A stretch of DNA of 64,000 nucleotides, from assembly GCA_902500125.1 (NCBI GenBank), contig GCA_902500125.1_4132.1. One strand, written 5' to 3'. Below are positions 32,115-44,478 of this stretch, piece by piece. Made by a program: the position numbers and the translations under genes. The stretch is from Escherichia coli (lineage in GTDB: Bacteria > Pseudomonadota > Gammaproteobacteria > Enterobacterales > Enterobacteriaceae). Position 1 is the first letter of the stretch. Each line of letters begins with the position of its first letter. Below the pieces are notes generated by a model, which made no database searches, had not been told where the DNA came from, and saw nothing but the letters and a program-made list of their open reading frames with translations.

Positions 32115-32130
32115 TTAAACACATAGAGAC

Positions 32131-32222
32131 AGGGGAAGCTCCTAGTGAACAACCTTTATGTACAGGCGAATTGTTAAAATTCAGCCTGGACAAATGCGAT
32201 CACTAGGATTCTCCCCAGGCTA
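32131..32222. repeat. interleaved inverted repeats (A-B-A'-B')
   Basis: A GGGGAAGCTCCTAGTGA 32132-32148 / A' TCACTAGGATTCTCCCC 32200-32216; B AGCCTGG 32183-32189 / B' CCAGGCT 32215-32221. Confidence 0.45.
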
Positions 32223-32290
32223 AACCCCGTAATCATAGGTAGTCATAAGTAATCATATATAAACATTTATATGAGCACCGTAGAATCACA

Positions 32291-32388
32291 GAATGATTAT
32301 ATATGATTCAGTACTGATTAGTATAGACAAGATTGCTCAAGAATGCACGGAAATGTGTGTGAATGATTATATATGATTCAGTACTGAT
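32291..32388. repeat. 28-bp direct repeat pair
   Basis: GAATGATTATATATGATTCAGTACTGAT at 32291-32318 and 32361-32388. Confidence 0.8.
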
Positions 32389-32674
32389 ATGCCACTAAGT
32401 AGGCAGAGGAAGTCTGCCGTACTTTGTAGTTTCCAAGCTCCTTTTCCATTTTGCAAATTACATCAAATGTAATCAAAAGTAATCACACAATGATTAGTAC
32501 TGAATTATTACTTTCACCTTAATTACAATTACCCTTTTACCCTTCGGGGTAAAATTCCATTACCCCTTGAGGCTCCAGCAAAAAGTTGGTTAGTACTCCA
32601 TCCTAAATCTCGATCCTAAAAATTTTGGAGTACCTATGAAATAAAAGTTGGATCTTCGAAAGTTGAAATTTACG

Positions 32675-32704
32675 TTGGGACGTTTATGATTTGTGGGATA
32701 TAAT
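32675..32704 (+). promoter_or_regulatory. possible promoter (weak -35)
   Basis: TTGGGA 32675, 18 nt, TATAAT 32699; same layout as 6022-6051. Confidence 0.35.
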
Positions 32705-32762
32705 GATGTTTGTAGTCGGGTAGTTCTCAAGAATATCAGTACTGAATAATGAAAGAAAGCTA

Positions 32763-32790
32763 TTGACATTATGATTCAGTACTGTATAAT
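32763..32790 (+). promoter_or_regulatory. sigma70-like promoter with no downstream ORF
   Basis: TTGACA 32763-32768, 16 nt (CAGTACTG), TATAAT 32785-32790, GTTCTACATAGAGAG start region; no SD or ORF follows. Confidence 0.55.
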
Positions 32791-32976
32791 GTTCTACATA
32801 GAGAGATGAGTTGCCGCAAACAATTCATTCACTCTACCTCCTGTCGTGAGACAGTACTGAAAGGATAGTTCCTCCTATGGGTGGTACATCTTTTTATAAC
32901 CTCTTTTTTCGTAATATAAACAGTACTGATATTAACAGAATGGTGTCAGTACTGATTTTAATCTAAAGCATTATGC

Positions 32977-32995
32977 CACCAGCTTGTGCTGGTGG
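32977..32995. other. hairpin made of Chi and its complement
   Basis: CCACCAGC-ttgt-GCTGGTGG; + strand Chi at 32988-32995. Confidence 0.8.
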
Positions 32996-33192
32996 ATTCC
33001 CTCTAACAGTATTCAGTACTACATGATGGTCTTCATCCTCCTAGGGTAACATAGTGAGGGCTATGATGGCAGTACTGAATACTCCCTTTCAAAAGATAGA
33101 TCTATGGTATAGTACTGACGGATTTTGGGTGTAGTTACCCTGGGTGGATTTTGGACGTAGATATGTCTAGCCCTCCAGAAGTCTGGAAGTAA

Positions 33193-33328
33193 AGATGGCT
33201 ATCCATCTAGACGGCTAAACGGCTAGATTTCTGGATGGCTGGATGGCTAGATTTCTGGATGGCTGGATGGCTAGACGTTTGGACGGCTAAACGGCTAGAT
33301 GGTTACACGTCTGGAAGTATAGACGGCT
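33193..33328. repeat. iteron-like array of the octamer RRAYGGCT (10-11 copies), with 24-bp tandem unit x2
   Basis: AGATGGCT 33193, AGACGGCT 33209, AAACGGCT 33217, GGATGGCT 33233/33241/33257/33265, GGACGGCT 33281, AAACGGCT 33289, AGACGGCT 33321; flanked by GTCTGGAAGTA 33181 and 33309. Confidence 0.8.
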
Positions 33329-33489
33329 AAATCAAAATTTTATTTTGTTTTTTCCAATAGTTCCCCTACCGCGTGGGGATAGTTTCCCCGCAGTATCTGG
33401 AGTTAGATTTTTCTGAATCTGGAATCATTATCTTATAAACTGGGGGCAATGTCAACGGCCTGGACGGATATTTTTAAAAATTTTTTCAG

Positions 33490-33580
33490 TACTGAATTTT
33501 GGGCGTAACTATGCACCCGGTGGGCTTGAGTCTTTCTCGACTTGATGGAACTATTATACAGTACTGAAAAAATAAAGCAA
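33490..33580 (-). promoter_or_regulatory. U element: promoter + conserved transcribed core
   Basis: Minus strand TTGCTT (33580-33575), 16 nt, TATAAT (33558-33553), then ...ATCAAGTCGAGAAAGACTCAAGCCCACCGGGTGC (core 33525-33513). Confidence 0.45.
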
Positions 33581-33639
33581 TACCCTGGAAGCAAAAAAAT
33601 TTTAATTAATTTGCTTGCTATCCTGGGCCGGACTATGGT

Positions 33640-33702
33640 ACTATATTTCAGTACTGAGAAAGTGCGTTTGCCTGCTAGGGTGCGGGAGTGTATCCTTTTT
33701 TT
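33640..33702 (+). promoter_or_regulatory. U element, degenerate copy (core + T7)
   Basis: CTAGGGTGCGGGAGTGTATCC 33675-33695 followed by T7; no good promoter; converges on next element. Confidence 0.3.
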
Positions 33703-33711
33703 ATATCTTGA

Positions 33712-33796
33712 ATTTTGGGCGTAATTCCGCACCCCCTGGGGTTTCCGCTTTCTCGCGTCTATGTAGTAATTATACGCTTTTTCAGGATCAAGTCAA
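33712..33796 (-). promoter_or_regulatory. U element: promoter + conserved transcribed core
   Basis: Minus strand TTGACT (33796-33791), 16 nt, TATAAT (33774-33769), TACTACATAGACGCGAGAAAGCGGAAACCCCAGGGGGTGC. Confidence 0.45.
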
Positions 33797-33949
33797 TACC
33801 TAAAAACAAAATAATTGAAAATAATTTAACGCGTTTAAACGGCCCGTAAAGCCCTGGAATGATTAGAATGGTGCAAATGTATAGCTTAGGTGTATTAATG
33901 CGTTAGAATGCGTCTGAGGCCGTTTTACGGGGTATAGGGATGATTTAGT

Positions 33950-34115
33950 GGATTGATTCAGTACTGAATAATAGTACTCCTATATAGAAAGATAGTTCCC
34001 CTGGATTGATTCAGTACTGAATAATAGTACTCCTATATAGAAAGATAGTTCCCCTGGATGGTTGCAGTACTGAATGATAGTACTGAATAATAGTTCCCCT
34101 ATATAGAAAGAAAAC
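33950..34115. repeat. 53-bp tandem repeat, 2 exact copies + 1 diverged
   Basis: GGATTGATTCAGTACTGAATAATAGTACTCCTATATAGAAAGATAGTTCCCCT at 33950-34002 and 34003-34055; variant 34056-34115. Confidence 0.85.
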
Positions 34116-34142
34116 TATTTTAAAAGTATTTGTAGAAAGTAC

Positions 34143-34202
34143 TTGCAAACTAAGTTTAACGGCGTATAATGTTTTACATCGAGAGCGGGAACACTTCCCG
34201 CT
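34143..34202 (+). promoter_or_regulatory. PeSL-like cassette (early-type promoter + stem-loop)
   Basis: -35 TTGCAA 34143; -10 TATAAT 34165 + GTTTTACATC; hairpin 34184-34202; ATG 34226. Confidence 0.7.
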
Positions 34203-34225
34203 ACATATTACGAGAGATTAAAACG

Positions 34226-34588
34226 ATGGCGACTCAAATCACTAAAATTATTGCTAACCTGGTTAACTTTCGCGACGAGATGAAAGATCTTCCGGCAGAA
34301 ACGGTAAAAATTCACATTTCAGCTTATCGGGAACTTATTGCAATGTTACCGCTTAAGCGTGAACAATACGCCGCGACCGTGATGCTTGATGCGATGATCC
34401 ATAAGATGATCGCCAGTGATTTAACGATGGTTTATCAGTATATGGGCGAAAATTTCGCGGTGTATAGTAAACCAGTACCAGGAATGGAAAGTACAGAAGT
34501 ATTACACGGTTTAAATTTAAAACAAGATGCATGGGATAATATGCCTCGTTTCCTGGTATGGGCTGACAGTGGCAAGATTTACGAATAA
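34226..34588 (+). CDS. hypothetical protein (120 aa)
   Basis: ORF 34169 trimmed: its first 19 codons read through the -10 and hairpin; ATG 34226 follows GAGAGA. Confidence 0.65.
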   Translation: MATQITKIIANLVNFRDEMKDLPAETVKIHISAYRELIAMLPLKREQYAATVMLDAMIHKMIASDLTMVYQYMGENFAVYSKPVPGMESTEVLHGLNLKQDAWDNMPRFLVWADSGKIYE

Positions 34589-34602
34589 GTTTTAGAAAGT
34601 AC

Positions 34603-34661
34603 TTGCAAACTAAGTTTAAAAGCGTATAATGTTTTACATCAGGTGGGGAATAGTTCCCCAC
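34603..34661 (+). promoter_or_regulatory. PeSL-like cassette
   Basis: TTGCAA 34603; TATAAT 34625; hairpin GTGGGGAA-tag-TTCCCCAC 34643-34661; ATG 34682. Confidence 0.7.
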
Positions 34662-34681
34662 TATATAAGAGGATTAAAAAA

Positions 34682-34921
34682 ATGGCTAAATCAAAAATGT
34701 TCTTAGGTCACAAAAACAAAACTCATTGGAATGTAAGCCTTTGGATTAATAACGATGAGTCATTGTACCGGTTGGCCCAGGACTTTATTAACGATAGCAC
34801 TAATCGCAATGATGCGGCCCGTCATATGATGTTATTTTTAGAACAGACTGGACAAGATAAAACACCGGACGGATTCAAATATAGCACTACTGCGATCCGT
34901 GCGGCTATGGTTGGAATGTAA
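34682..34921 (+). CDS. hypothetical protein (79 aa), paralog of 36724..36963
   Basis: Trimmed from 34643; shared GHKNKTHWNVSLWINN..ESLYRLAQ...TPDGFKYSTTAIRAAMVGM. Confidence 0.7.
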   Translation: MAKSKMFLGHKNKTHWNVSLWINNDESLYRLAQDFINDSTNRNDAARHMMLFLEQTGQDKTPDGFKYSTTAIRAAMVGM

Positions 34922-35009
34922 TAGAATAGAATTTATTTAAAGTACTATTGCACGGGGATAGTACTTTATAATAGTGTTTTATTCATACACCAACGATAAG
35001 GGCAACAGC

Positions 35010-35276
35010 ATGAATATTAAGTATTTTGCGACGCGTGAACAAGCTCGGATCGCCGCTCGCCAGGACGGGGCAACGTTTAAAGATATGGGCGTACAATCGG
35101 AACGTGGTAAACGTTGGGCCATTGTAAAGCGTAGTACAGCCAGATCATTACAGTACTGGTTAGCGGCGTTAAAAAGTCCCGATAGTGTATCGCGTCGAGT
35201 GGTAGAAATAAAGCTCGACCGAAAGGGCAACCGCGTGACCGTGTACCGTACTAAAAAGATTGCAGTACTTGAATAA
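35010..35276 (+). CDS. hypothetical protein (88 aa), paralog of 46942..47337
   Basis: Trimmed from 34974; KYFATREQARIAARQDGATFKDMG...DRKGNRVTVY shared with 46942. Confidence 0.65.
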   Translation: MNIKYFATREQARIAARQDGATFKDMGVQSERGKRWAIVKRSTARSLQYWLAALKSPDSVSRRVVEIKLDRKGNRVTVYRTKKIAVLE

Positions 35277-35283
35277 AAAGTAC

Positions 35284-35342
35284 TTGCACCGTACTGATAA
35301 AAGCGTATAATGTTTTACATCGAGAGCGGGAACTCTTCCCGC
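35284..35342 (+). promoter_or_regulatory. PeSL-like cassette
   Basis: TTGCAC 35284; TATAAT 35306; hairpin 35326-35342; SD GGAG. Confidence 0.7.
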
Positions 35343-35363
35343 CTATAACCTGGAGTAATGAAA

Positions 35364-35594
35364 ATGACTAATATGTATATGACTGAAGTTAAAACCGTAA
35401 AAGATACTACCACGAATAAAACTACTTACTTACAGCGGATCTGTGGTGTATGGCAACGTATCAGCAAATCAAAGTACTTTAAATTAACATCATATGCAAA
35501 CCGTTCGGATTCATTCAGTACTGAAATAAAAGGTAATAAAGTACACCAATACGGCACTTATTATTATTACAGCCTGGACGCGATTGCAGTATAA
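35364..35594 (+). CDS. hypothetical protein (76 aa)
   Basis: ATG 35364 is 8 nt after GGAG (ATG 35358 is too close to the SD). Confidence 0.6.
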   Translation: MTNMYMTEVKTVKDTTTNKTTYLQRICGVWQRISKSKYFKLTSYANRSDSFSTEIKGNKVHQYGTYYYYSLDAIAV

Positions 35595-35624
35595 GCAGTT
35601 TACAAATCTTTACAATTGCCGGTA

Positions 35625-35704
35625 TTGACTTATTTTGTCAGTACTGGCATAATGTATTCATTGGCAGATAAGCCGTAGCCCATAGGGTGCGGGAGTGTAT
35701 CTAT
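35625..35704 (+). promoter_or_regulatory. U element: promoter + conserved transcribed core
   Basis: TTGACT 35625, 17 nt, CATAAT 35648; core GCCCATAGGGTGC 35678-35690; TGTATCTAT 35696-35704. Confidence 0.5.
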
Positions 35705-35734
35705 AGAAAAATTAGTTTAGTATAGTTACAATTG

Positions 35735-35797
35735 TGCACCCGGTGGGTTAGCTGTTGTCATGGGGTATATTATGCCAGTACTTGATAATGCTGTCAA
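35735..35797 (-). promoter_or_regulatory. U element, convergent partner of 35625-35704
   Basis: Minus strand TTGACA (35797-35792), 17 nt, CATAAT (35774-35769), core AACCCACCGGGTGC (35759-35746). Confidence 0.5.
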
Positions 35798-35843
35798 TAC
35801 TTTTTTTTAATATTCAGTACTGAAAACTATTTTTAAAAAGTAC

Positions 35844-35871
35844 TTGTAAACTATGTTTAAAGGCGTATAAT
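35844..35871 (+). promoter_or_regulatory. early-type promoter (upstream of tandem pair)
   Basis: AGTACTTGTAA: TTGTAA 35844; TATAAT 35866 + GTTTTACATC. Confidence 0.6.
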
Positions 35872-35876
35872 GTTTT

Positions 35877-35953
35877 ACATCAGGACGGGGAACGAAATAA
35901 GTAACTTCCCGTTAAGTAGCCCAGGAGTAAGGCACACGAAAAACTCCCCTGAT
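35877..35953 (+). ncRNA. conserved structured leader RNA (copy 1 of 3)
   Basis: Closing helix ATCAGG/CCTGAT; inner hairpin ACGGGGAA..TTCCCGT; motifs TAAGTAG, AGTAAG, ACGAAAAACT; near-identical at 46016-46090. Confidence 0.4.
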
Positions 35954-35961
35954 AAAATAGT

Positions 35962-35989
35962 TTGACAATAGAAAGTAAAAGCGTATAAT
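35962..35989 (+). promoter_or_regulatory. sigma70-like promoter (downstream of tandem pair)
   Basis: TTGACA 35962, 16 nt, TATAAT 35984; ATG 36022. Confidence 0.6.
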
Positions 35990-36021
35990 ACTTACATCAA
36001 CTACTGAATGAGGGTTACAAA

Positions 36022-36633
36022 ATGAAAACTATCACTACTACTACTTTTGTTATGGCTTTTTCTGAACTGAACGCAGAACAAAAAACGGCGGCTATCGAAC
36101 TGGTTCGGGATCGTGAGCGTTCATGTGAGGATAATTTCTTTGCTGAGGGCGTTATCGAGTACTATAAAGAAACAGTACTACCAGAATACGGCATAGATGA
36201 AGCTGAATTGCAATACAGTGGTTTTTGGTCGCAAGGTGACGGTGCATCAATCAGTACTAACCACGTTGACGCTGAGAAGTTTTTACGCAAGGTTAAGGCG
36301 TTAACGAAATATCGTTCAATCCGTCACCTGTTGAACGAGGATGATTTAGAAATGAGTGTAGAACGTTTCCAATCACGCTACGCACACGAAAACACGGTAG
36401 GCGGTTGCGTTGATACTCGCTACACTGATTTAACTGTAAAACAGGCGGCATTGGCTGAGGATCTGGAAAACTTACTGACTGATGCGATCCGTGAATTATC
36501 TCGTAAGTTGTACCGTGATTTAGAGAATGCATATGAGGATCAATTCACTACTGAAAACATTACTGCACTGATTGAGGGTAACGAATATCAATTCAATGTT
36601 ATTGATGGCGTAGTGGAATCAATCGAATATTAA
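36022..36633 (+). CDS. hypothetical protein (203 aa)
   Basis: ORF track; GAGGG upstream; acidic; motif GFWSQGDGAS; function not recognised. Confidence 0.7.
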   Translation: MKTITTTTFVMAFSELNAEQKTAAIELVRDRERSCEDNFFAEGVIEYYKETVLPEYGIDEAELQYSGFWSQGDGASISTNHVDAEKFLRKVKALTKYRSIRHLLNEDDLEMSVERFQSRYAHENTVGGCVDTRYTDLTVKQAALAEDLENLLTDAIRELSRKLYRDLENAYEDQFTTENITALIEGNEYQFNVIDGVVESIEY

Positions 36634-36644
36634 TTTAAAAAGTA

Positions 36645-36705
36645 CTTGTAAACTAAGTTTAAAAGCGTATAATACTTTACATCAAGGCGGGGAGTGGTTC
36701 CCCGC
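36645..36705 (+). promoter_or_regulatory. PeSL-like cassette
   Basis: TTGTAA 36645; TATAAT 36668; hairpin GCGGGGA-gtggt-TCCCCGC 36687-36705. Confidence 0.7.
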
Positions 36706-36723
36706 TCAAACGAGGATTTAAAA

Positions 36724-36963
36724 ATGGCTAGTACTAAAACTTACAACGGACACAAAAACAAAACTCATTGGAATGTAAGCCTTTGGATTAATAACGGTGA
36801 GTCATTGTATCGGCTTGCTCAAAGTTGCATCGCACAAAGTAGAACTAAAGATATTGCTGCGGAATGTATGTACCGCAGATTAAAAGCCAACGGTACTACT
36901 ACAACGCCGGACGGCTTTAAGTATAGCACTACTGCGATCCGTGCTGCAATGGTTGGAATGTAA
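36724..36963 (+). CDS. hypothetical protein (79 aa), paralog of 34682..34921
   Basis: Trimmed from 36694 to ATG 36724 after GAGGA. Confidence 0.7.
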   Translation: MASTKTYNGHKNKTHWNVSLWINNGESLYRLAQSCIAQSRTKDIAAECMYRRLKANGTTTTPDGFKYSTTAIRAAMVGM

Positions 36964-37020
36964 TATTCAGTACTGAGATAATGGCGGGTAATAGTTCCCG
37001 CCTTTACTGAGGGTTATCTA

Positions 37021-37281
37021 ATGAGTAAAGTAATTAGCTATACAGCACTAAGCAAGTCATTATCTATTAGCCAGTGCACCGATGGTTATTGGCTTTATGA
37101 TGAAACGCGTGGAATGAATTTAGCTATGCGTGCAAAAACTGCTGAGGCGGCGTATCTTGAGGCACTGGAATACTACCAGGAACGTTTAACGGAAGTAGAA
37201 GAAGATTATAAAAGCCTCAAAGCGAAAGTAGATCATTTCGTCGGTCAATTCATCGAGGAAGACGACGATAAACAATACTGA
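37021..37281 (+). CDS. hypothetical protein (86 aa)
   Basis: ORF track; GAGGG upstream; preceded by hairpin GGCGGG-taatagtt-CCCGCC. Confidence 0.6.
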   Translation: MSKVISYTALSKSLSISQCTDGYWLYDETRGMNLAMRAKTAEAAYLEALEYYQERLTEVEEDYKSLKAKVDHFVGQFIEEDDDKQY

Positions 37282-37291
37282 AAAAAAGTAC

Positions 37292-37350
37292 TTGCAATTA
37301 GTTTTCAGTACTGTATAATGGTTTACATCAAAGGGAGAAATGGTTCTCCC
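37292..37350 (+). promoter_or_regulatory. PeSL-like cassette
   Basis: TTGCAA 37292; TATAAT 37314; hairpin GGGAGAA-atgg-TTCTCCC 37333-37350. Confidence 0.7.
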
Positions 37351-37369
37351 TGGTAATGAGGAAAATAAA

Positions 37370-37591
37370 ATGGCTAATATCACTACTCTTTCCCAACTGG
37401 AAGCACTGGTGAAATCTATGCGGGAACATGCCGACAAAATCGGCGTACAAGATCCAGCCGTTTGCTTCTGCGACGAATTGAATGATGATACCCTGGTAAT
37501 AGCAGAAGTCCAGGACGTTTCTAACTATTCATCGCGTTACACTGGCGGCGTAGCAAATAAAGGCGACTTCTGTTTATACCTTACAAAATAA
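37370..37591 (+). CDS. hypothetical protein (73 aa)
   Basis: Trimmed from 37340 to ATG 37370 after GAGGAA. Confidence 0.65.
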   Translation: MANITTLSQLEALVKSMREHADKIGVQDPAVCFCDELNDDTLVIAEVQDVSNYSSRYTGGVANKGDFCLYLTK

Positions 37592-37595
37592 CAAC

Positions 37596-37626
37596 GCGGG
37601 GAGATAATAACTCCCCGTTACTTTTT
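37596..37626 (+). terminator. rho-independent terminator
   Basis: CGGGGAG-ataataa-CTCCCCG then TTACTTTTT. Confidence 0.6.
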
Positions 37627-37639
37627 CAGTACTGAATCA

Positions 37640-37726
37640 TTTAATAGACGGATCTCGGCACCCGGTGGGTTAGTGACTGTTTCGTCTTGATGTAGTAATT
37701 ATGCCAGTACTGGATGCACTTGTCAA
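37640..37726 (-). promoter_or_regulatory. U element: promoter + conserved transcribed core
   Basis: Minus strand TTGACA (37726-37721), 17 nt, CATAAT (37703-37698), TACTACATCAAGACGAAACAGTCACTAACCCACCGGGTGC (core 37671-37658). Confidence 0.5.
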
Positions 37727-37759
37727 CAACTATTTTTCAAATACTTTTTATTAAAATAC

Positions 37760-37814
37760 TTGCAATTAGTTTTTAAACGCGTATAATGTTTTGCATAGGG
37801 GGAGCGGTTCCCCC
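37760..37814 (+). promoter_or_regulatory. PeSL-like cassette
   Basis: TTGCAA 37760; TATAAT 37782; hairpin GGGGGA-gcggt-TCCCCC 37798-37814. Confidence 0.7.
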
Positions 37815-37835
37815 TGGTAACTAAGGAATAATAAA

Positions 37836-38072
37836 ATGCTTGAACAAATCAAATCAACGACTTCGAATGTAACGGGAACGGTAGCACACTTTACTAGTGA
37901 TGAATCGCGGGGCGTACCCTATTGTGCTGTACATGTAAACACTGATGGCAACTACTGGTTTACTGTTTACGGATCATATTCCTTTGGACGACCAGGGCAT
38001 CAAAAAATTCTGGATAAAGTACAGCCAACGGGTAAAAATATCACTGCTGAAATGTTTTATAAAAAATCATAA
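37836..38072 (+). CDS. hypothetical protein (78 aa)
   Basis: ORF track; TAAGGAA SD. Confidence 0.65.
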   Translation: MLEQIKSTTSNVTGTVAHFTSDESRGVPYCAVHVNTDGNYWFTVYGSYSFGRPGHQKILDKVQPTGKNITAEMFYKKS

Positions 38073-38077
38073 AGTAC

Positions 38078-38136
38078 TTGATAATAGTTTTTAGTACTGT
38101 ATAATATTTTACATCGCAAGGGGGAGCGGTTCCCCC
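38078..38136 (+). promoter_or_regulatory. PeSL-like cassette
   Basis: TTGATA 38078; TATAAT 38100; hairpin 38120-38136 identical to the one at 37798. Confidence 0.65.
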
Positions 38137-38156
38137 TGGTAACTAAGGATAATCAA

Positions 38157-38456
38157 ATGAAAATTGCAATCATCGCCCTGGCTTTATCTGTTTCCTCTTT
38201 CGCTGTTAATGCGTCATTAGATGTAAGTAGTGAAAAATTCATTCAGTGCACTGTTGCAATGACCGATGAAAGTACTGGCGAGATTGTATTAAAGGATCTG
38301 GAGATTCAGCCGGAAGCATTTAAAAACGGCCCGTTCCATGAAGAAGACGAAAACGGTAGCACGACAATTTATTATGATGCCAGTACTAAACGCGGTTCGG
38401 TCACTGTAATGGATACTGAGAAAGTAACGCATACCGGCGTTATTAATTGCCGTTGA
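38157..38456 (+). CDS. small secreted protein, signal-peptide/Cys-pair family
   Basis: Signal peptide MKIAIIALALSVSSFAVNA; Cys pair IQCTVA ... VINCR. Confidence 0.7.
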   Translation: MKIAIIALALSVSSFAVNASLDVSSEKFIQCTVAMTDESTGEIVLKDLEIQPEAFKNGPFHEEDENGSTTIYYDASTKRGSVTVMDTEKVTHTGVINCR

Positions 38457-38477
38457 TAGATACTACGGGGTAACATC

Positions 38478-38708
38478 ATGACTAAGCGAATTGTTTTACT
38501 TAACGAAAGCAGTACTACACAACTACTTAACGCCGTGCATTATGATATTGAAACGAGCGTTAATCTTATCAGTACTGTAGTACTGTTGGACACTGGAAAG
38601 GTCGCCAATGATAAAGCGATTGCAGGTATATTAACGGATCTTGAGCCTGGTAGCAGTGCACCAATAACGTTAAATGGTAAAGTGTTTAATATTTTACTCA
38701 CTGATTAA
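38478..38708 (+). CDS. hypothetical protein (76 aa)
   Basis: ORF track; GGGG upstream. Confidence 0.6.
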   Translation: MTKRIVLLNESSTTQLLNAVHYDIETSVNLISTVVLLDTGKVANDKAIAGILTDLEPGSSAPITLNGKVFNILLTD

Positions 38709-38714
38709 GTACAT

Positions 38715-38737
38715 AGCCCACCTGGTGGGCTTTTTTG
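38715..38737 (+). terminator. rho-independent terminator
   Basis: AGCCCACCTGGTGGGCT + T6. Confidence 0.75.
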
Positions 38738-38790
38738 TTTTTGTAGTATCGTAGTACTGAGATACTTTGAAAATAGTTTTAAGAAAGTAG

Positions 38791-38818
38791 TTGACATTAC
38801 CGCAGAAAAGCGTAGAAT
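38791..38818 (+). promoter_or_regulatory. sigma70-like promoter
   Basis: TTGACA 38791, 16 nt, TAGAAT 38813. Confidence 0.55.
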
Positions 38819-38823
38819 GTATT

Positions 38824-38898
38824 ACATCAAGACGGGGAGCACTAAGTAGACCGCCAGTAAGTCGAACGAAAAACTGGACACGTCGAGAAAACTTTGAT
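38824..38898 (+). ncRNA. structured leader RNA (diverged copy 3)
   Basis: ACATCAAGACGGGGAG...; closing helix ATCAAG/CTTTGAT; shares TAAGTAG, AGTAAG, ACGAAAAACT with 35877 and 46016. Confidence 0.3.
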
Positions 38899-38941
38899 AC
38901 ACTAATAAACGTAAACTAAACTTTAATTGAGGATTTATAAA

Positions 38942-39424
38942 ATGGCTAATGTAAAATCATTCATCAAAGCACTGGTAGCAAATGAAACTAACGTCGCGGC
39001 TGAGATCCTGGCTGAACTGGATAACGATACCATGAAAGCGGTACGCAATAATTTTAACATCGCGTACAGTACTGCGAAAGAACTACAAGCAAATAAAGCG
39101 GCAGAGATTGAAGCAGCGAAGGCGGCCCGTGAAGCAGAACTACAAGCAACAATTGAAAGTATCCAGGCGGCAGTAGTTGGGCTGGATCTGGAAGTAGTTA
39201 CCGAGATGGCACAAAAAGCCCTGGCGGTTAAGTACGGGGAAGATAAGCCGGAATCTAAGCCTAAAAAATGGATTCAAGAACGTGTAGCGGTAGTACTTGA
39301 TAACGGGGAAGAATATCTGATTCCGGTGCGTGGTAACTGCATTGCGGTAGTACTGGATGCTATCAAAGAAAGCGGATTGACTCGCGAGGAATGGATCGAA
39401 GCTCATCGCAAAGTTGAAGCATAA
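38942..39424 (+). CDS. hypothetical protein (160 aa), Ala/Glu-rich helical centre
   Basis: Trimmed from 38927 to ATG 38942 after GAGGA. Confidence 0.65.
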   Translation: MANVKSFIKALVANETNVAAEILAELDNDTMKAVRNNFNIAYSTAKELQANKAAEIEAAKAAREAELQATIESIQAAVVGLDLEVVTEMAQKALAVKYGEDKPESKPKKWIQERVAVVLDNGEEYLIPVRGNCIAVVLDAIKESGLTREEWIEAHRKVEA

Positions 39425-39445
39425 CAATTAAAGTACTGAATCATT

Positions 39446-39472
39446 AGCCCACTTATACAGTGGGCTTTTTTG
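39446..39472 (+). terminator. rho-independent terminator
   Basis: AGCCCACT-tatac-AGTGGGCT + T6. Confidence 0.75.
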
Positions 39473-39552
39473 TGTTTATCGTTTACCAGGCCACCAGCAC
39501 CGCCTAGAAACGATTCTAACGTATTAAACTGTTTATCTGATGCATTGCCCTA

Positions 39553-39560
39553 GCTGGTGG
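39553..39560 (+). other. intergenic Chi octamer
   Basis: GCTGGTGG; its complement CCACCAGC lies at 39491-39498. Confidence 0.8.
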
Positions 39561-39625
39561 CGTTAAAGTCGTTAGAATGCGATTGAGTGCGTTTAAAGTA
39601 TTTTGCAAAAAGTAATAAAAAGTAC

Positions 39626-39687
39626 TTGCACGATTAAGAGATTAGCGTATAATGTTTTACATCGAGAGGGGGAAACGGTTCTCCTTC
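39626..39687 (+). promoter_or_regulatory. PeSL-like cassette
   Basis: TTGCAC 39626; TATAAT 39648; imperfect hairpin 39666-39687. Confidence 0.65.
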
Positions 39688-39708
39688 CAAATCAAAGGAA
39701 TCAAAACA

Positions 39709-39936
39709 ATGGCTATCGTAATCGCTTATGTAACTGGTACTACTGGCACTTCTTCTACTGTTGCTGTAATTACCAACAAGAAAGGTGCGGAATTACATTC
39801 TGCAATGGATACCTGGGCGGTAAATGAGTTCGGTCAGTGGGCAAGTGTAGCATATGTTGAAACCTATCAAGTGCCAACCATTAGCTTAACGGATCTCGGT
39901 GTAGATCGTATCCTTTGCCTGGATGAATTAAATTAA
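39709..39936 (+). CDS. hypothetical protein (75 aa)
   Basis: Trimmed from 39652 to ATG 39709 after AAGGAA. Confidence 0.65.
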   Translation: MAIVIAYVTGTTGTSSTVAVITNKKGAELHSAMDTWAVNEFGQWASVAYVETYQVPTISLTDLGVDRILCLDELN

Positions 39937-39944
39937 AAAAGTAC

Positions 39945-40005
39945 TTGCAAAGTAAGTTGGATAAAGTATAATACATTACATCAAGGGGAGAAAATGGTTC
40001 TCCCC
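39945..40005 (+). promoter_or_regulatory. PeSL-like cassette
   Basis: TTGCAA 39945; TATAAT 39967; hairpin GGGGAGAA..TTCTCCCC 39985-40005. Confidence 0.7.
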
Positions 40006-40023
40006 ACTAAGAGGAAACTAAAA

Positions 40024-40167
40024 ATGAAAACTTGTCAATGTGGTAAAAAATCTATTACTGGTTTGAAACGGGGCGTTGCTCTTTGTCAGTATCACTATAA
40101 CGCTCAGGTATGGGGTAAAGAGTGGGCCGACCAGGTGGAAGCAGTAAAGAAAGCAAAAAGTAAGTAA
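40024..40167 (+). CDS. small Cys-containing protein (47 aa)
   Basis: Not in ORF track; own cassette + AGAGGAAA SD; MKTCQCGKK...ALCQYHYNAQ (CxC...CxxH). Confidence 0.55.
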   Translation: MKTCQCGKKSITGLKRGVALCQYHYNAQVWGKEWADQVEAVKKAKSK

Positions 40168-40186
40168 AATTATTATCACAGTACTA

Positions 40187-40215
40187 TTGACATAGATTGA
40201 TAGTACTGGCATAAT
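40187..40215 (+). promoter_or_regulatory. class-2 promoter (AGTACT-flanked)
   Basis: AGTACTATTGACA: TTGACA 40187, 17 nt, CATAAT 40210; about 85-bp unit repeated at 40445-40542. Confidence 0.65.
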
Positions 40216-40248
40216 AGATTTTATCAAGACAACTAAGAGGAAACAATA

Positions 40249-40461
40249 ATGGCTATCATCACAAAAATCAAAGTAAACAAATCACTGGTTAAGCTGGAAG
40301 AAGTGAAAGAAGGTTATAAAGTATCGTGGTGCGGCATGTATCGGATTTTTACAGATGTTGACGATGCAATCAATTACTACACTGACACGGTAAAAAACTT
40401 TGTTCGTGCTGATGTGGTTATGGCAGTGGCAACACACAAAGCATCGAAAGAAAGTAAGTAA
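40249..40461 (+). CDS. hypothetical protein (70 aa)
   Basis: ORF track; AGAGGAAA SD. Confidence 0.65.
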   Translation: MAIITKIKVNKSLVKLEEVKEGYKVSWCGMYRIFTDVDDAINYYTDTVKNFVRADVVMAVATHKASKESK

Positions 40462-40480
40462 AAATATTATCACAGTACTA

Positions 40481-40509
40481 TTGACATAGTTTGATAGTAC
40501 TGGCATAAT
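40481..40509 (+). promoter_or_regulatory. class-2 promoter (repeat of 40187)
   Basis: TTGACA 40481, CATAAT 40504. Confidence 0.65.
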
Positions 40510-40542
40510 AGATTTTATCAAGACAACTAAGAGGAAATTAAA

Positions 40543-40887
40543 ATGGCTAATATCAACACTATCGCAAAACAAAATATCAACCTGTCTTCTGTTGAAGTTG
40601 TACATATTGCCGCTCGGCGTTGGTTCCAGGCTTCATATGGTAACACTTATTTCTCTTTAAGTGTAGACGTAGAAATTGATGGTAATTTTATTGAAGTAGT
40701 AAACGTGCCGTTCCAATATGGATACGGGGATCACTTTGACACTGTAGCAATGGAAGAATTTAGCAAGGTTATTAATATGGAAGATAAAGAGTTTTTACGC
40801 GGTTCTTATCTTTCCCGTTTTTGCCGTGACAATAATATCACTGTTTACAGTTCGGTAACTGATGTTAAACGCAAAAAAGATCTTTAA
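40543..40887 (+). CDS. hypothetical protein (114 aa), paralog of 46523..46846
   Basis: Shared NTY..S, F.YGYG and C-terminal DVKRKKD(L/M). Confidence 0.7.
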   Translation: MANINTIAKQNINLSSVEVVHIAARRWFQASYGNTYFSLSVDVEIDGNFIEVVNVPFQYGYGDHFDTVAMEEFSKVINMEDKEFLRGSYLSRFCRDNNITVYSSVTDVKRKKDL

Positions 40888-40967
40888 TTAGCTTTACTTT
40901 ATGCAGATACTTTGATATAGTGTCTGCATAGGGGAAAGAAATTAAATTAACTTAAGAGGATCGTATA

Positions 40968-41237
40968 ATGAAAAATATCAGTACTTTAATCGATGCAGGT
41001 ACACATGTTCGGCGGTCTATGGTTGCAACCAGTACTACAAAACAAGTAGCGAGCGGTTATCTTGTATTTGTGCACGATGGTAAACTCCTGGAACGTTCAA
41101 TCAATTTTGATGTTAAAAACAATTGCCGTTTTATTATCTTTCGCCGTGAACAATATAAGATCGACATTCCAGCGAAGCCCATTAGCGGTGCGTACAATGT
41201 GCAATCATTGTTTGAGCGTCAACCATACACCTATTAA
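40968..41237 (+). CDS. hypothetical protein (89 aa)
   Basis: ORF track; AAGAGGA SD. Confidence 0.6.
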   Translation: MKNISTLIDAGTHVRRSMVATSTTKQVASGYLVFVHDGKLLERSINFDVKNNCRFIIFRREQYKIDIPAKPISGAYNVQSLFERQPYTY

Positions 41238-41288
41238 TCAAAACATCGTTAGCGGTCGATTCAGGCCGCTTATATTGGGGATTATACC

Positions 41289-41561
41289 ATGAACGTTAAT
41301 CAAGTACTGAATGAGATCGAAAGCATCATTAAACCGATGAAGCGTACTGATGCTATGTTAACACCGGAAGAATGCCGCCTTTATGAGCGTTACAGCGTCG
41401 AACAAGTCCAGGCAATGGCTATGGCTACCCCAGCCGTTAAACCGCCTGAGAATGCGTTACAGGACGTTACAGGGGATTATATCATCAATCCAGTACTAGG
41501 GAAGATGGCTGCAATCACCGAAGATCAACAAGACTACTTAAGCCAGTACTTAAAAGGTTAA
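41289..41561 (+). CDS. hypothetical protein (90 aa)
   Basis: ORF track; GGGGA upstream. Confidence 0.6.
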   Translation: MNVNQVLNEIESIIKPMKRTDAMLTPEECRLYERYSVEQVQAMAMATPAVKPPENALQDVTGDYIINPVLGKMAAITEDQQDYLSQYLKG

Positions 41562-41566
41562 TTAAT

Positions 41567-41776
41567 ATGCTTACTGTACAGGATAAGATCGACATCTTAA
41601 AGGTTAATATGTATGTGATTGATGCCGTACCTGGTAAAGTATTTGCATACGATGACACTACTGTAAGCGATTTCTACTATAGCCAGGCCGTGGGGGATCT
41701 TTCTGTACAGTCGGTTATTGAAAACGTAGTTAATGCAGCGTATGAGCATTTACTTTCAAATAGTACTTGCAATTAG
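41567..41776 (+). CDS. hypothetical protein (69 aa)
   Basis: ORF track; last codons ..NSTCN* are encoded by the next cassette's AATAGTACTTGCAATTAG. Confidence 0.6.
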   Translation: MLTVQDKIDILKVNMYVIDAVPGKVFAYDDTTVSDFYYSQAVGDLSVQSVIENVVNAAYEHLLSNSTCN

Positions 41777-41826
41777 TTTTTAAACGCGTATAATGTTTTA
41801 CATGAAGGGGAGAAATGATTCTCCCC
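41767..41826 (+). promoter_or_regulatory. PeSL-like cassette
   Basis: TTGCAA 41767; TATAAT 41789; hairpin GGGGAGAA-atga-TTCTCCCC 41807-41826. Confidence 0.7.
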
Positions 41827-41845
41827 ACTAATTAAGGAATATGAA

Positions 41846-41992
41846 ATGAAAGCATCAAAAAAGAGTAATACTAAGAAAGCACGTTCACCTTTCGCTGGGG
41901 TATTCCCTTTACGTTTCGTTGATGAAGTAGTTTCCTACCCGCCGGGCCTTACTCCTGAGATGGTAGAAAGTTTGCGTAAATCTAAAAAATAG
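41846..41992 (+). CDS. small basic protein (48 aa)
   Basis: Not in ORF track; own cassette + AAGGAA SD; MKASKKSNTKKARSPFAG...; stop TAG lies in next cassette. Confidence 0.5.
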   Translation: MKASKKSNTKKARSPFAGVFPLRFVDEVVSYPPGLTPEMVESLRKSKK

Positions 41993-41995
41993 TAC

Positions 41996-42055
41996 TTGCA
42001 ATTAGTTTTTAGTACTGTATAATAGTTTACATGAAGGGGAGAAATGATTCTCCCC
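41996..42055 (+). promoter_or_regulatory. PeSL-like cassette
   Basis: TTGCAA 41996; TATAAT 42018; hairpin 42036-42055. Confidence 0.7.
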
Positions 42056-42073
42056 AATAACAGGAGAAACAAA

Positions 42074-42226
42074 ATGAAACAATACAACGCTCGGTTTGAT
42101 GTTACTATCGGTAACGGCAAAGGTCAATTCTCTTTCAGTACTCGCAAAAGTTATACAGAAAACTTCCTGCGTAATTGTGCACTGACCGCCGCTCAAATTA
42201 AACATTATTTTCAGGCTAAAAAATGA
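42074..42226 (+). CDS. small protein (50 aa)
   Basis: Trimmed from 42044 to ATG 42074 after AGGAGAAA. Confidence 0.55.
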   Translation: MKQYNARFDVTIGNGKGQFSFSTRKSYTENFLRNCALTAAQIKHYFQAKK

Positions 42227-42312
42227 AATCATTAGCTTATTACAGTTCAGCGGTGATCGGTGCATTGATCGCGGCATTGTTAGTAACCTATCTATTCTTT
42301 ATGGTGATTTAA
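42223..42312 (+). CDS. hydrophobic micro-protein (29 aa)
   Basis: ATGA-coupled to previous gene; MKSLAYYSSAVIGALIAALLVTYLFFMVI (one TM). Confidence 0.4.
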   Translation: MKSLAYYSSAVIGALIAALLVTYLFFMVI

Positions 42313-42453
42313 ATGAATCCTAACGGTTTAATTTACAGTACTCCTAAAACGAAAGCAGATAAAGCGAAAGCACGTAAAGCGAAAGTAAAGGAGTACATTA
42401 AGCAAGGCATGACGCGAAAGGCCGCACTACTCAGAGTAAAGGCTGAAAAATAA
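42313..42453 (+). CDS. small basic protein (46 aa)
   Basis: ATG directly after previous TAA; Lys-rich KADKAKARKAKVKEY. Confidence 0.4.
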   Translation: MNPNGLIYSTPKTKADKAKARKAKVKEYIKQGMTRKAALLRVKAEK

Positions 42454-42460
42454 TTGAAAA

Positions 42461-42548
42461 AAGGGTTGACTCCGGTCAGTCCCTTTGCTATTATATATAC
42501 ATACCAGCGATACACTGGCGGCCCATAGGGTGCACAAATGTATCTATT
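42461..42548 (+). promoter_or_regulatory. composite cassette: terminator hairpin carrying -35, plus U element core
   Basis: GGGTTGAC-tccg-GTCAGTCCC; TTGACT 42466, 17 nt, TATTAT 42489; core GCCCATAGGGTGC 42521-42533; TGTATCTATT 42539-42548. Confidence 0.55.
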
Positions 42549-42588
42549 ATATAAGTATTGAGTACTGAAAACTATTTTTAAAAAGTAC

Positions 42589-42648
42589 TTGCAAACTATC
42601 TCAATAAGCGTATAATGTTTTACATCGAAAGGGGAAACGGTTTCCCCT
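42589..42648 (+). promoter_or_regulatory. PeSL-like cassette
   Basis: TTGCAA 42589; TATAAT 42611; hairpin AGGGGAAA-cgg-TTTCCCCT 42630-42648. Confidence 0.7.
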
Positions 42649-42667
42649 GGTAATAAGGAAACAAATC

Positions 42668-43009
42668 ATGACTATCTCAATTGCTCAATCTAACTTTGAA
42701 AATGAAATCATCGCCCAGGCACTGCGTTTAAATGATGGTCGGGCCGAAATTAATTACGGTTTCAATTCAGGCGGTTGTGAAAAATATCAGTACTTTGTAA
42801 CGGCTGATGGCGGTGTCCTGGGTATCAATACAGTTATTGTAAACATCCAAAAAATTAATTTCAATGATCCAGACGATAGCCAGTTTTACATCACGGGCGT
42901 AGACGTGAACTATGAGGATGACTCACTAACTGATGACTACACTGGTGAAACGTTAGAAAGTGCATACTGTGAAGATGATTATCAGTCCGGTCCAGAAGAT
43001 TTCGAATAA
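42668..43009 (+). CDS. hypothetical acidic protein (113 aa)
   Basis: ORF track; TAAGGAAA SD. Confidence 0.65.
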   Translation: MTISIAQSNFENEIIAQALRLNDGRAEINYGFNSGGCEKYQYFVTADGGVLGINTVIVNIQKINFNDPDDSQFYITGVDVNYEDDSLTDDYTGETLESAYCEDDYQSGPEDFE

Positions 43010-43023
43010 TATAAAAAAATAGT

Positions 43024-43083
43024 TTGACAATAGATTATAGTACTGTATAATAGTTTACATCAAGGGGAGAAAAACTTCTCCCC
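43024..43083 (+). promoter_or_regulatory. PeSL-like cassette
   Basis: TTGACA 43024; TATAAT 43046; hairpin 43064-43083. Confidence 0.7.
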
Positions 43084-43105
43084 ACTAACAGAGAGAGAAA
43101 ACAAA

Positions 43106-43318
43106 ATGGCTAATATCTGCACTGTACTGAAAAATGCAAAACAAGTTTTATTTTCTGATCACGATCATTTAAACAAGGATATTACTGGCGTTCGGAATAT
43201 CAAAGATGTAAAAAGTGTTATGGGTATCTATTGCAATATGAAACGTGTTGGAACGTTCGGCGACAAAGTACTATACCAGGCAGGGGATTACAATTTTACA
43301 CTGACTATCATTAACTAA
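43106..43318 (+). CDS. hypothetical protein (70 aa)
   Basis: ORF track; GAGAGAGAAA SD region. Confidence 0.65.
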   Translation: MANICTVLKNAKQVLFSDHDHLNKDITGVRNIKDVKSVMGIYCNMKRVGTFGDKVLYQAGDYNFTLTIIN

Positions 43319-43337
43319 AAATATATTACCAGTACTA

Positions 43338-43365
43338 TTGACATAGTTTGATAGTACTGTATAAT
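43338..43365 (+). promoter_or_regulatory. class-2 promoter
   Basis: AGTACTATTGACA: TTGACA 43338, 16 nt, TATAAT 43360. Confidence 0.65.
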
Positions 43366-43409
43366 AAGTTTTATAAACAGTAGTTAACTTAACCTAAGAG
43401 AGAAATAAA

Positions 43410-43553
43410 ATGATCGCACTGGATTCATTCATCGACGCAGTACTGGCAAAAACTGGCGAGGATCTGACCGCAGAACAATACGCGATGATCGAGCAATGTC
43501 AGCAAGACGGTAAATCGGTGAAAGATACTGTTAAGATTATCCGCAAGATGTAA
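43410..43553 (+). CDS. small protein (47 aa)
   Basis: Not in ORF track; AAGAGAGAAA SD; MIALDSFIDAVLAKTGEDL... Confidence 0.5.
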   Translation: MIALDSFIDAVLAKTGEDLTAEQYAMIEQCQQDGKSVKDTVKIIRKM

Positions 43554-43560
43554 TATTATA

Positions 43561-43587
43561 GCCCACTGGTCAACGCTGGTGGGCTTT
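43561..43587 (+). terminator. terminator hairpin containing Chi
   Basis: GCCCAC...GTGGGC + TTT; 3' arm includes GCTGGTGG 43575-43582. Confidence 0.5.
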
Positions 43588-43658
43588 AATCCTTTACCCT
43601 ATACAATGCCAGTACTAAACCGTTTATCTCGTTAGAATGCGTTACAGGACGTTTGACA

Positions 43659-43856
43659 ATGATTAGCATGAAATCAGTACAAAAACAAATAGAAACATTA
43701 TCAAAAATTAAACGTAAACAGTACTCGTTAGAATATACAATCAATGGTAACTATCATCTAATGAAAGAGAATAATTTTATTGTCATTGATGAATCATTGC
43801 AAATCATTAGTATAGTACTGAAAGCATTAATCAATGACAGAAAAAAATTAAAATAA
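43659..43856 (+). CDS. hypothetical protein (65 aa)
   Basis: ORF-track TTG 43653 trimmed to ATG 43659; AT-richer than neighbours; weak SD. Confidence 0.45.
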   Translation: MISMKSVQKQIETLSKIKRKQYSLEYTINGNYHLMKENNFIVIDESLQIISIVLKALINDRKKLK

Positions 43857-43860
43857 TCTA

Positions 43861-43944
43861 TTGACAATATCATCCAGTACTGGCATAATACTTACATCAA
43901 GACGAGAACGTCACTAACCCATAGGGTGCACAAATGTAACTATA
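43861..43944 (+). promoter_or_regulatory. U element: promoter + conserved transcribed core
   Basis: TTGACA 43861, 17 nt, CATAAT 43884; ACTTACATCAAGACGAGAACGTCACTAACCCATAGGGTGC (core to 43930). Confidence 0.5.
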
Positions 43945-43951
43945 TAATATC

Positions 43952-44022
43952 GATCAATAAATGATCAAAAAAGTACTGGATCAATTTAACATAAGGAGTA
44001 TAATTCTGATCAATTCTTGATC
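43952..44022. repeat. cluster of five GATCAA(A/T) motifs
   Basis: GATC at 43952, 43963, 43979, 44008, 44019, each followed by AA; non-coding. Confidence 0.8.
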
Positions 44023-44084
44023 AAAGGCAATATACGCAGTTGAATTTATATAGACATTACAAAGGCGTTACTATCCGTGGTAAT

Positions 44085-44092
44085 GCTGGTGG
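44085..44092 (+). other. intergenic Chi octamer
   Basis: GCTGGTGG. Confidence 0.8.
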
Positions 44093-44185
44093 ATATGTAG
44101 TATCATATGGTTTGAATAAGATTAGCACTAGTAGTATTATTGTAGCATTACAGTACTATAGTATTTTTATAATGAGGTTAAAATA

Positions 44186-44443: not shown

Positions 44444-44450
44444 AAAGTAA

Positions 44451-44478
44451 TTGACAGTACTGAAAGATAGTGTATAAT
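44451..44478 (+). promoter_or_regulatory. sigma70-like promoter
   Basis: TTGACA 44451, 16 nt, TATAAT 44473 + GTTTTATATC. Confidence 0.65.

Follow-up and report, generated by a model that had tools for sequence, protein, structure and literature searches.

Tandem 8-bp metbox-like units inside the terminal repeat of a jumbo coliphage: a candidate track for a ribbon-helix-helix protein

Results

The left end of the terminal repeat

The analysed window, a stretch of 64,000 nucleotides, derives from a jumbo coliphage of the PBECO4/121Q/phAPEC6 type (Asteriusvirus), and the interval from 32.1 to 34.2 kb is 92–95% identical to many records. The array described here lies within a 2-kb ORF-free stretch (32115–34168), which is flanked by co-directional small genes. 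The sequences of vB_Ec-M-J and fEgEco12, both of which have determined ends, start at AGTAGGCAGAGG, corresponding to window position 32398. Direct terminal repeats are annotated at 1–21,525 in the vB_Ec-M-J record; the fEgEco12 repeat, 20,993 bp according to PhageTerm, is confirmed by restriction digests. In all records deposited with both repeats, an array homolog is found about 0.76 kb from the left end and is present twice. Because of the determined ends and the doubled array homologs in relatives, position 32398 can be regarded as the left repeat boundary, and the array starts 763 bp inside it. This location just inside the left boundary of a repeat of ~21 kb was overlooked in the original prediction, as was the metbox frame of the units. 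Restriction enzymes digest the virion DNA of a close relative normally, so this DNA is not heavily modified.

From the end inwards, the leader comprises a terminal hairpin, a sigma-70 promoter, a Chi hairpin, two copies of GGATTTTGGRYGTAG, the array and an A/T tract. The features are as follows.

32398–53090: direct terminal repeat, ~20.7 kb; right boundary placed by collinearity with position 20,993 of fEgEco12
32398–32418: left boundary of the direct terminal repeat and physical left end of virion DNA (AGTAGGCAGAGG...), where the two records with determined termini start
32402–32418: hairpin GGCAGAGGAAGTCTGCC with a 6-bp stem, 4 nt inside the left end, seen in the sequence
32763–32790, + strand: perfect consensus sigma-70 promoter (TTGACA-16-TATAAT), 365 bp from the left end, directed rightward through the array
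32976–32995: Chi/Chi hairpin with arms CCACCAGC-TTGT-GCTGGTGG, 578 bp from the left end
33120–33163, + strand: two GGATTTTGGRYGTAG repeats directly upstream of the array, also found before the array in CBB, GAP32 and Serratia BF
~33161–33328, + strand: 8-bp tandem array of 21 head-to-tail units (ATATGTCT ... AGACGGCT), delimited by repeat scan and MetJ matrix
33193–33328, + strand: array core, 17 contiguous boxes passing the MetJ matrix, 121.8 bits in total
33233–33280, + strand: two 24-bp super-units (GGATGGCT GGATGGCT AGAYNTYT), the section of the array that varies in copy number according to length differences among relatives
33329–33355: 27-bp A/T-rich tract (AAATCAAAATTTTATTTTGTTTTTTCC) closing the array, seen in the sequence

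The array ends with ...TAGACGGCTAAAT(C/G)A and a run of T residues, an arrangement conserved in other genera and in the T7-like phage PGT2.

Other repeated motifs are dispersed in the region. Chi (GCTGGTGG) occurs 16 times in the window (0.63 copies expected), at positions ranging from 32976 to 51729 and at 1363, 11380, 24700 and 24958. Ten copies inside the terminal repeat are on the + strand, an orientation that, on our reading of RecBCD polarity, acts on RecBCD that has entered at the right physical end; the - strand carries one copy, 578 bp inside the left end. The loop of the Chi/Chi hairpin at 32976–32995 is inverted (TTGT to ACAA) in vB_Ec-M-J. The motif GAATTTTGGGYGTA is found four times in the leader (33120, 33146, 33494 and 33710), and other genera also keep it right in front of their array; it bears a loose resemblance to the T5 DRD repeat (GTGCAAATCCGAC) read as its reverse complement. 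The palindrome CAGTACTG is present in 65 copies (0.7 expected), mainly between 28000 and 53000 (for instance at 32777, 33487 and 33959), and AGTACT in 278 copies (22 expected). CAGTACTG sits in the spacer of the 32763–32790 promoter, fills the leaders of CBB, GAP32, BF and XaC1, and, in Aeromonas phage AhSzq-1, adjoins the array; it resembles a motif of early promoters or of operators. The first gene of the terminal repeat is closely preceded by a 53-bp tandem repeat at 33949–34084 (2.6 copies, two of which are identical), in which every copy carries TTCAGTACTGAA and TATATAGAAAG. Just outside the left end, a perfect 28-nt direct repeat with 70-bp spacing is found at 32291–32388; together with the hairpin at 32402–32418, it is a candidate part of the terminase cut-site context.

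GC skew changes sign at ~18 kb and ~32 kb, the second change coinciding with the terminal-repeat boundary. The + strand ORFs of ~60 aa at 28–32 kb show negative GC skew, unlike the + strand genes located after 34 kb. Small genes of the terminal repeat match the Pfam families of ParE-like toxin, DksA/TraR zinc finger, GNAT acetyltransferase and endonuclease VII domains, and DUF7249 is found in two ORFs of the 27800–64000 interval, one of them at 34643–34918.

Structure of the array

The motif RRAYGGCT has ten exact + strand matches in the array, at 33193, 33209, 33217, 33233, 33241, 33257, 33265, 33281, 33289 and 33321, in agreement with the 10–11 copies originally noticed; about 0.02 would be expected by chance in 136 bp. 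Within 33193–33328, no match is found on the - strand. In the whole 64-kb window, both strands together contain 27 matches, compared with 8.8 ± 3.0 in shuffled sequences. The spacing of "about 8–16 bp" given in the original prediction had to be revised, as the array is a strict 8-bp tandem on a single strand and in a single register, with no spacers between units. Tandem Repeats Finder reports periods of 8, 16, 24 and 32, and lag-8 self-identity peaks at position 33198 with 0.66; the window averages 0.27 (sd 0.047), and the runner-up is 0.47. The twice-repeated units are present as described (GACGGCTAAACGGCTAG at 33210 and 33282, GGATGGCTGGATGGCTAGA at 33233 and 33257). The two GTCTGGAAGTA copies, thought to bracket the array, do occur at 33181 and 33309, but are simply units in register with all others, being separated by 128 bp (16 x 8). 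Likewise, the interval 33193–33328 corresponds to the 17-box core, while the array as a whole continues upstream to ~33161 and consists of 21 units.

The array is neither a coding region nor an RNA gene. ORFs crossing it do not exceed 31 aa, no Rfam match with E ≤ 1 is found between 31.5 and 35 kb, and no tRNA is found at the array. The + strand RNA of the 33150–33345 interval folds at -76.7 kcal/mol (z = -6.5 relative to shuffles) and the - strand RNA at -45 kcal/mol (z = -3.3). The strong + strand fold results from the quasi-palindromic nature of the units and from G-U pairing, and was not counted as RNA evidence for this reason. It implies that the array has hairpin or cruciform potential whenever the DNA is single-stranded.

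The units match the MetJ operator box

When shifted by 2 nt, RRAYGGCT corresponds to the 8-bp metbox, the consensus of which is AGACGTCT. MetJ is a ribbon-helix-helix repressor that binds tandem metboxes, one dimer per box. Sequences were scored with the published MetJ half-metbox bit matrix and its thresholds, requiring at least one quarter of the consensus score for a box (3.145 bits) and at least the consensus score for the total of a site (12.58). Of the 21 units in register, 19 score at least 3.145 bits, 17 of them contiguously, and the total is 139 bits versus 12.58 for the consensus. A random 8-mer passes the box threshold with a probability of 0.0147, and scoring boxes in the array are confined to one of the eight phases. 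No other run of more than two boxes is found in the 64 kb with this matrix. As a positive control, the real metJ/metB and metF operators of E. coli K-12 were scanned with this code and recovered as four boxes each, at 6.2–7.8 bits per box; boxes of phage arrays score 6.1–9.8 bits.

The base frequencies of 61 distinct units, taken from 10 phages, follow the MetJ matrix even in the second choices. Preferences along the unit are A>G, G>A/T, A>C, C>T, G, T>G, C>T/A and T>C. CTAG in the array is the junction between consecutive boxes. Position 6 of the box is G in about a third to half of the phage units, versus 10% of chromosomal metboxes.

The array has the adjacent spacerless boxes, at least two in 8-bp register, that define a MetJ operator, and metJ is present in E. 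coli K-12. It does not overlap the promoter of a methionine or SAM gene, the nearest promoter being 370 bp upstream, and no met genes are found. The array is thus not an ordinary member of the MetJ regulon.

Conservation among jumbo phages

Asteriusvirus arrays consist of 18–24 units, and their length differences correspond to whole units. The array is 24 bp shorter in vB_Ec-M-J and 16 bp shorter in fEgEco12 than in the window, in both cases within 33233–33280, and 18 units are found in phAPEC6. In EJP2, which is ~70% identical over the surrounding stretch of ~0.3 kb, 21 of 24 boxes are good. A positionally homologous array of 12–17 units is carried by Mimasvirus (CBB, GAP32 and XbC2) and Eneladusvirus (Serratia BF, pEa_SNUABM_12 and fHe-Yen9-04); in records of these genera that start at the genome end, it begins ~670–690 bp in. 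Across the three genera, the array therefore starts at a similar distance, ~670–770 bp, from the reported left end. The absence or lack of conservation in close relatives that had been named as a possible argument against the array was not observed.

Mimasvirus and Eneladusvirus arrays differ at 23–27 of 120 nt, yet retain 92–106 bits, whereas only 11–24 bits remain after random substitutions (P<0.0002). Box quality in the array is under purifying selection. XbC2, a phage propagated on Xanthomonas, whose order lacks MetJ, has an intact array in which 14 of 16 boxes pass. The array is absent from XaC1 (Xanthomonas) and PA5oct (Pseudomonas), more distant members of the clade with MetJ-less hosts.

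Arrays in other phages

Arrays of this class were found in three unrelated groups of phages with terminal repeats, namely Rak2-like jumbo myoviruses, Demerecviridae other than T5, and the T7-like Ermolevavirus. In all three groups, it is the terminal repeat that contains the array. Only five orders, all gammaproteobacterial, have MetJ; the Enterobacterales, Vibrio and Aeromonas hosts of array-carrying phages belong to MetJ-bearing orders, with XbC2 as the one exception.

Among Demerecviridae, the array consists of 28 units in Aeromonas phage AhSzq-1, 17 units in Vibrio phage Pontus and 9 units in Providencia phage PR1, where it spans 9,620–9,695 of the 10,461-bp repeat. In these three phages, the array has clustered DnaA boxes on one side and, on the other, a CCCTC(C)TGCGC motif that is identical to the T5 7.9% nick site. 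The interval between boxes and motif is within what Davison calls Repeat Region 3, the presumed injection-stop region. The array is near the right boundary of the repeat in these T5-like phages and near the left one in jumbo phages. T5 and its E. coli relatives lack the 8-bp array, although their host has MetJ. The matching T5 interval features Fur-box-like repeats (GAGAATCATTATC) with five matches of at least 13/19, a weak match in A/T-rich DNA. The comparison suggests that the injection-stop region is a cassette of host-repressor sites.

In PGT2 (Ermolevavirus), the array is located ~38–109 bp from the left end in both copies of the terminal repeat, the length of which (~260 bp) was estimated from where the two matches fall. 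In metagenomic viral contigs, too, arrays are found at the ends, including one of ~37 units of AGATGTCY. Overall, phage arrays range from 9 to at least 37 units.

Similar arrays in bacteria

A total of 185,579 bacterial genomes were scanned for four tandem RGAYGKYT boxes, which were expected only in MetJ-bearing orders. The scan, for which the chance estimate ignored slippage, returned at least 120 loci, mostly from MetJ-less taxa; many of them are perfect microsatellites or multi-copy head-to-head pairs. MetJ specificity of the array is not supported by these results, and our confidence in MetJ was lowered. Arrays of RGAYGGYT units are common in MetJ-less bacteria, including Bacteroidota, Gemmatimonadota and Anaerolineae. 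In Gemmatimonadales, Anaerolineae and Saprospiraceae, they often form head-to-head pairs, with many copies per genome. The GG type is ~5 times as frequent as the GT type among the at least 120 loci listed. One bacterial array that was checked has an MFS transporter gene on one side and a DUF6494 gene on the other. The bacterial RGAYGGYT arrays may be an unrecognised family of repeated extragenic elements. No similar long arrays were found by blastn in E. coli genomes or PLSDB plasmids.

Search for a phage-encoded binding protein

A tblastn search of 50,697 phage records with E. coli MetJ returned host contamination only, and a phage-encoded MetJ was rejected. None of the 113 ORFs located between 27.8 and 64 kb, an interval of 36 kb of a ~350-kb genome that covers the whole terminal repeat and its flanks, matches the RHH, Arc, MetJ or ParA families of Pfam. 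The ten ORFs nearest to the array and the suspected toxin-antitoxin pairs are uninformative as to the binder, as are the early ORFs of PGT2. Readings of the array as TrpR sites (8-bp-spaced CTAG), DnaA sites, Chi-like (GCTGGATGG) or SlmA-like motifs were dropped for poor match to the site sequences.

Discussion

A ribbon-helix-helix filament as the favoured reading

Judged from unit sequence and register, the proposal that some protein of the ribbon-helix-helix type would bind the array is well supported, and MetJ is the most economical guess for its identity. Beyond the matrix match, MetJ is favoured by the MetJ-bearing orders to which most hosts belong, by the lack of a MetJ homolog in the phage records and of RHH or ParA families among the 113 ORFs, and by the array-less XaC1 and PA5oct on MetJ-less hosts. 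Our leading interpretation, to which we give slightly less than an even chance, is that the array serves as a track for a ribbon-helix-helix repressor, most likely host MetJ together with SAM, and acts both as a fixed protein-DNA landmark and as a MetJ sink. A repressor of this type would place one dimer on every 8 bp and, by cooperative polymerisation, form a continuous filament of ~150 bp. Since E. coli MetJ bound to S-adenosylmethionine recognises this sequence and spacing, the array is predicted to be coated by the host protein. With 17 boxes of a per-box quality matching that of real operators, it would be occupied wherever holo-MetJ fills those operators.

The array belongs to DNA that probably enters and is expressed early, downstream of a host promoter and the Chi hairpin. 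Comparable positions are seen elsewhere, as the array is within the first-transferred DNA in T5-like phages and within the first 110 bp in PGT2. A role of the coated segment in cis is suggested by the constant location of the array in the terminal leader and by its occurrence within the repeat of three phage groups. The filament might act as a landmark or roadblock in genome entry, in end protection or processing, or in leader transcription, all of which are speculative. As the phage replicates, the filament would titrate MetJ, and such a sink would be unavoidable at hundreds of genome copies. The phage encodes two DNA methyltransferases, and a MetJ sink could be significant for it. T5- and T7-like phages destroy host DNA, which makes a sink harder to reconcile with these groups.

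A more elaborate version holds that unrelated virulent phages each recruited host MetJ onto their terminal repeat, where a SAM-dependent filament would work in genome-end biology, as a component of first-step transfer and injection stop in T5-like phages and as a roadblock or landmark in the first-entering DNA of jumbo phages. Entry or end processing would then be coupled to host SAM, and methionine and SAM synthesis would be de-repressed as phage DNA accumulates. We consider this scenario unlikely.

MetJ is not the sole fit, because the matrix cannot separate it from other ribbon-helix-helix proteins. Arrays in MetJ-less bacteria, XbC2, the array-less T5, the G at box position 6 and the lack of promoter overlap all stand against it.

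Alternative explanations

Several of these observations would suit a phage-encoded or other small ribbon-helix-helix protein that is not MetJ, of the type Ib kind exemplified by ParG, omega and the ParB of plasmid pMF1, for which the array would be a centromere-like or autoregulatory site. The metbox resemblance would then reflect a shared mode of reading DNA, and the role of the array would be to position or organise phage DNA. The closest precedent is pMF1 ParB, a protein of 86 aa with a C-terminal strand-helix-helix, which binds tandem 8-bp arrays of the AGATGTCT type in EMSA and DNase footprinting (PMC3235114). By hand calculation, the pMF1 units AGATGTCT and GGAAGTCT would pass the MetJ matrix, and Myxococcus, the host of the plasmid, has no MetJ. 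The similar arrays of MetJ-less bacteria, the retention of the XbC2 array on Xanthomonas and the over-representation of G at position 6 relative to chromosomal metboxes all fit such a protein. The short contiguous repeats are of the kind bound by ribbon-helix-helix proteins, namely the pMF1 unit class. The adjacent parA and small binder genes of a type Ib centromere are not seen, as neither ParA/CbiA nor RHH families occur among the 113 ORFs of 27.8–64 kb; this is weak evidence, given that Pfam misses pMF1 ParB too. Genes next to the array offer no lead, a cognate protein would be needed in each of three unrelated phage groups, with no shared candidate seen near the arrays, and virulent phages have no obvious need for partition. 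On balance, we regard a non-MetJ protein of this kind as possible but doubtful.

The original prediction likened the architecture to that of initiator, terminase or partition-protein sites. The notion of an array for a cooperative protein holds, with pMF1 ParB as a precedent for partition, whereas initiator and terminase fit poorly, both reading worse than a ribbon-helix-helix filament. As a small-terminase recognition site, the array would direct the cut at the left end of the terminal repeat. Direct-repeat arrays are typical of such sites, as in lambda cosB and SPP1 pac. In keeping with this proposal, the array is about equally far from the reported left end in three genera and falls inside the repeat in all three phage groups. 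The conserved distance is, however, as large as 763 bp from the cut, the same 8-bp unit is common to siphovirus, podovirus and jumbo myovirus groups, whose terminases are presumably unrelated, copy number varies freely, and T5-like arrays are near the opposite boundary of the repeat; a terminase site is thus quite improbable. Very improbable too is an array with no specific binder, that is, a minisatellite made by slippage or structural DNA tolerated in the non-coding leader, the units of which may form hairpins or cruciforms. Perfect homogeneous arrays in metagenomic phage contigs and many bacteria, shifts in copy number by whole units and a + strand fold far better than that of shuffled sequences speak for it; heterogeneous units are nevertheless kept position by position across genera under strong selection on unit quality, the location is kept in three genera, and the array class recurs in three phage groups. 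Least probable of all is a replication origin, in which the units would be iterons for a phage initiator and the A/T tract that follows them the unwinding element. The cumulative GC skew has its minimum at ~32 kb, and the T5-like arrays lie beside clustered DnaA boxes. The units, however, are contiguous, 8 bp long and out of helical phase, rather than iterons of ~17–22 bp in phase; of initiator gene, DnaA boxes and unwinding element, only the 27-bp A/T tract is seen; the DnaA box consensus is missing from the 28–42 kb interval, and neighbouring ORFs include no initiator-like gene. T5 origins are mid-genome according to Davison. An origin deduced from GC skew was rejected, as the skew switch falls on the physical end of the genome and on a boundary between gene blocks.

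Significance

We found no literature linking MetJ or the array sequences to phage terminal repeats, nor is the array mentioned in publications on these jumbo phages. Its interest lies mainly in its recurrence across unrelated phages and in the fact that binding is directly testable. Should MetJ or any ribbon-helix-helix protein coat a fixed segment of the terminal repeat in the three groups, the array would represent an undescribed class of cis-elements at phage ends. In the T5 relatives that carry it, it is a candidate for the sequence-specific component of an injection-stop region of the T5 type. It may also offer large DNA-methylating phages a route to raise host SAM supply in proportion to genome copy number. 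On the practical side, the array, which in the examined Rak2-like jumbo phages is ~0.7–0.8 kb from the left boundary of the repeat and inside it, could flag the true ends in the many Rak2-like assemblies deposited with arbitrary starts.

Comparison with known systems

The injection-stop block of T5, like the array, consists of conserved non-coding repeats inside the terminal repeat near its boundary; unlike this block, the jumbo phage array is near the left boundary and has no accompanying DnaA boxes. The SRL and SRR elements of T7 are also arrays of short direct repeats just inside the genome end, upstream of the first host promoters, but their unit is a different 7-mer with variable spacing. 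Ribbon-helix-helix dimers form filaments on the contiguous 7–8 bp repeats of parH (ParG of TP228) and on the heptad arrays bound by omega (pSM19035); these differ from the phage array in unit sequence, in their partition or autoregulation contexts and in having adjacent par genes.

The metJ/metB and metF operators share with the array contiguous 8-bp units, the AGACGTCT consensus, the CTAG junction, per-box scores and tolerated variants. MetJ operators contain 2–5 boxes, in contrast to the 17–21 found here and the 28 to ~37 of other phages. Judging by its sequence, the array also departs from them in lying away from methionine promoters, within a phage terminal repeat, and in being G-rich at box position 6. 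The centromere-like iterons of pMF1 (PMC3235114) are tandem 8-bp units of the same class (AGATGTCT, GGAAGTCT and GGATGTCT) bound by a small ParB. They occur as dispersed sites of 3–7 units beside the parCAB operon, whereas the phage is virulent and no parA or parB was detected near its array. Set beside these systems, the array would appear to be a tandem operator or centromere array of the ribbon-helix-helix type, unusual in scale and set in a new context.
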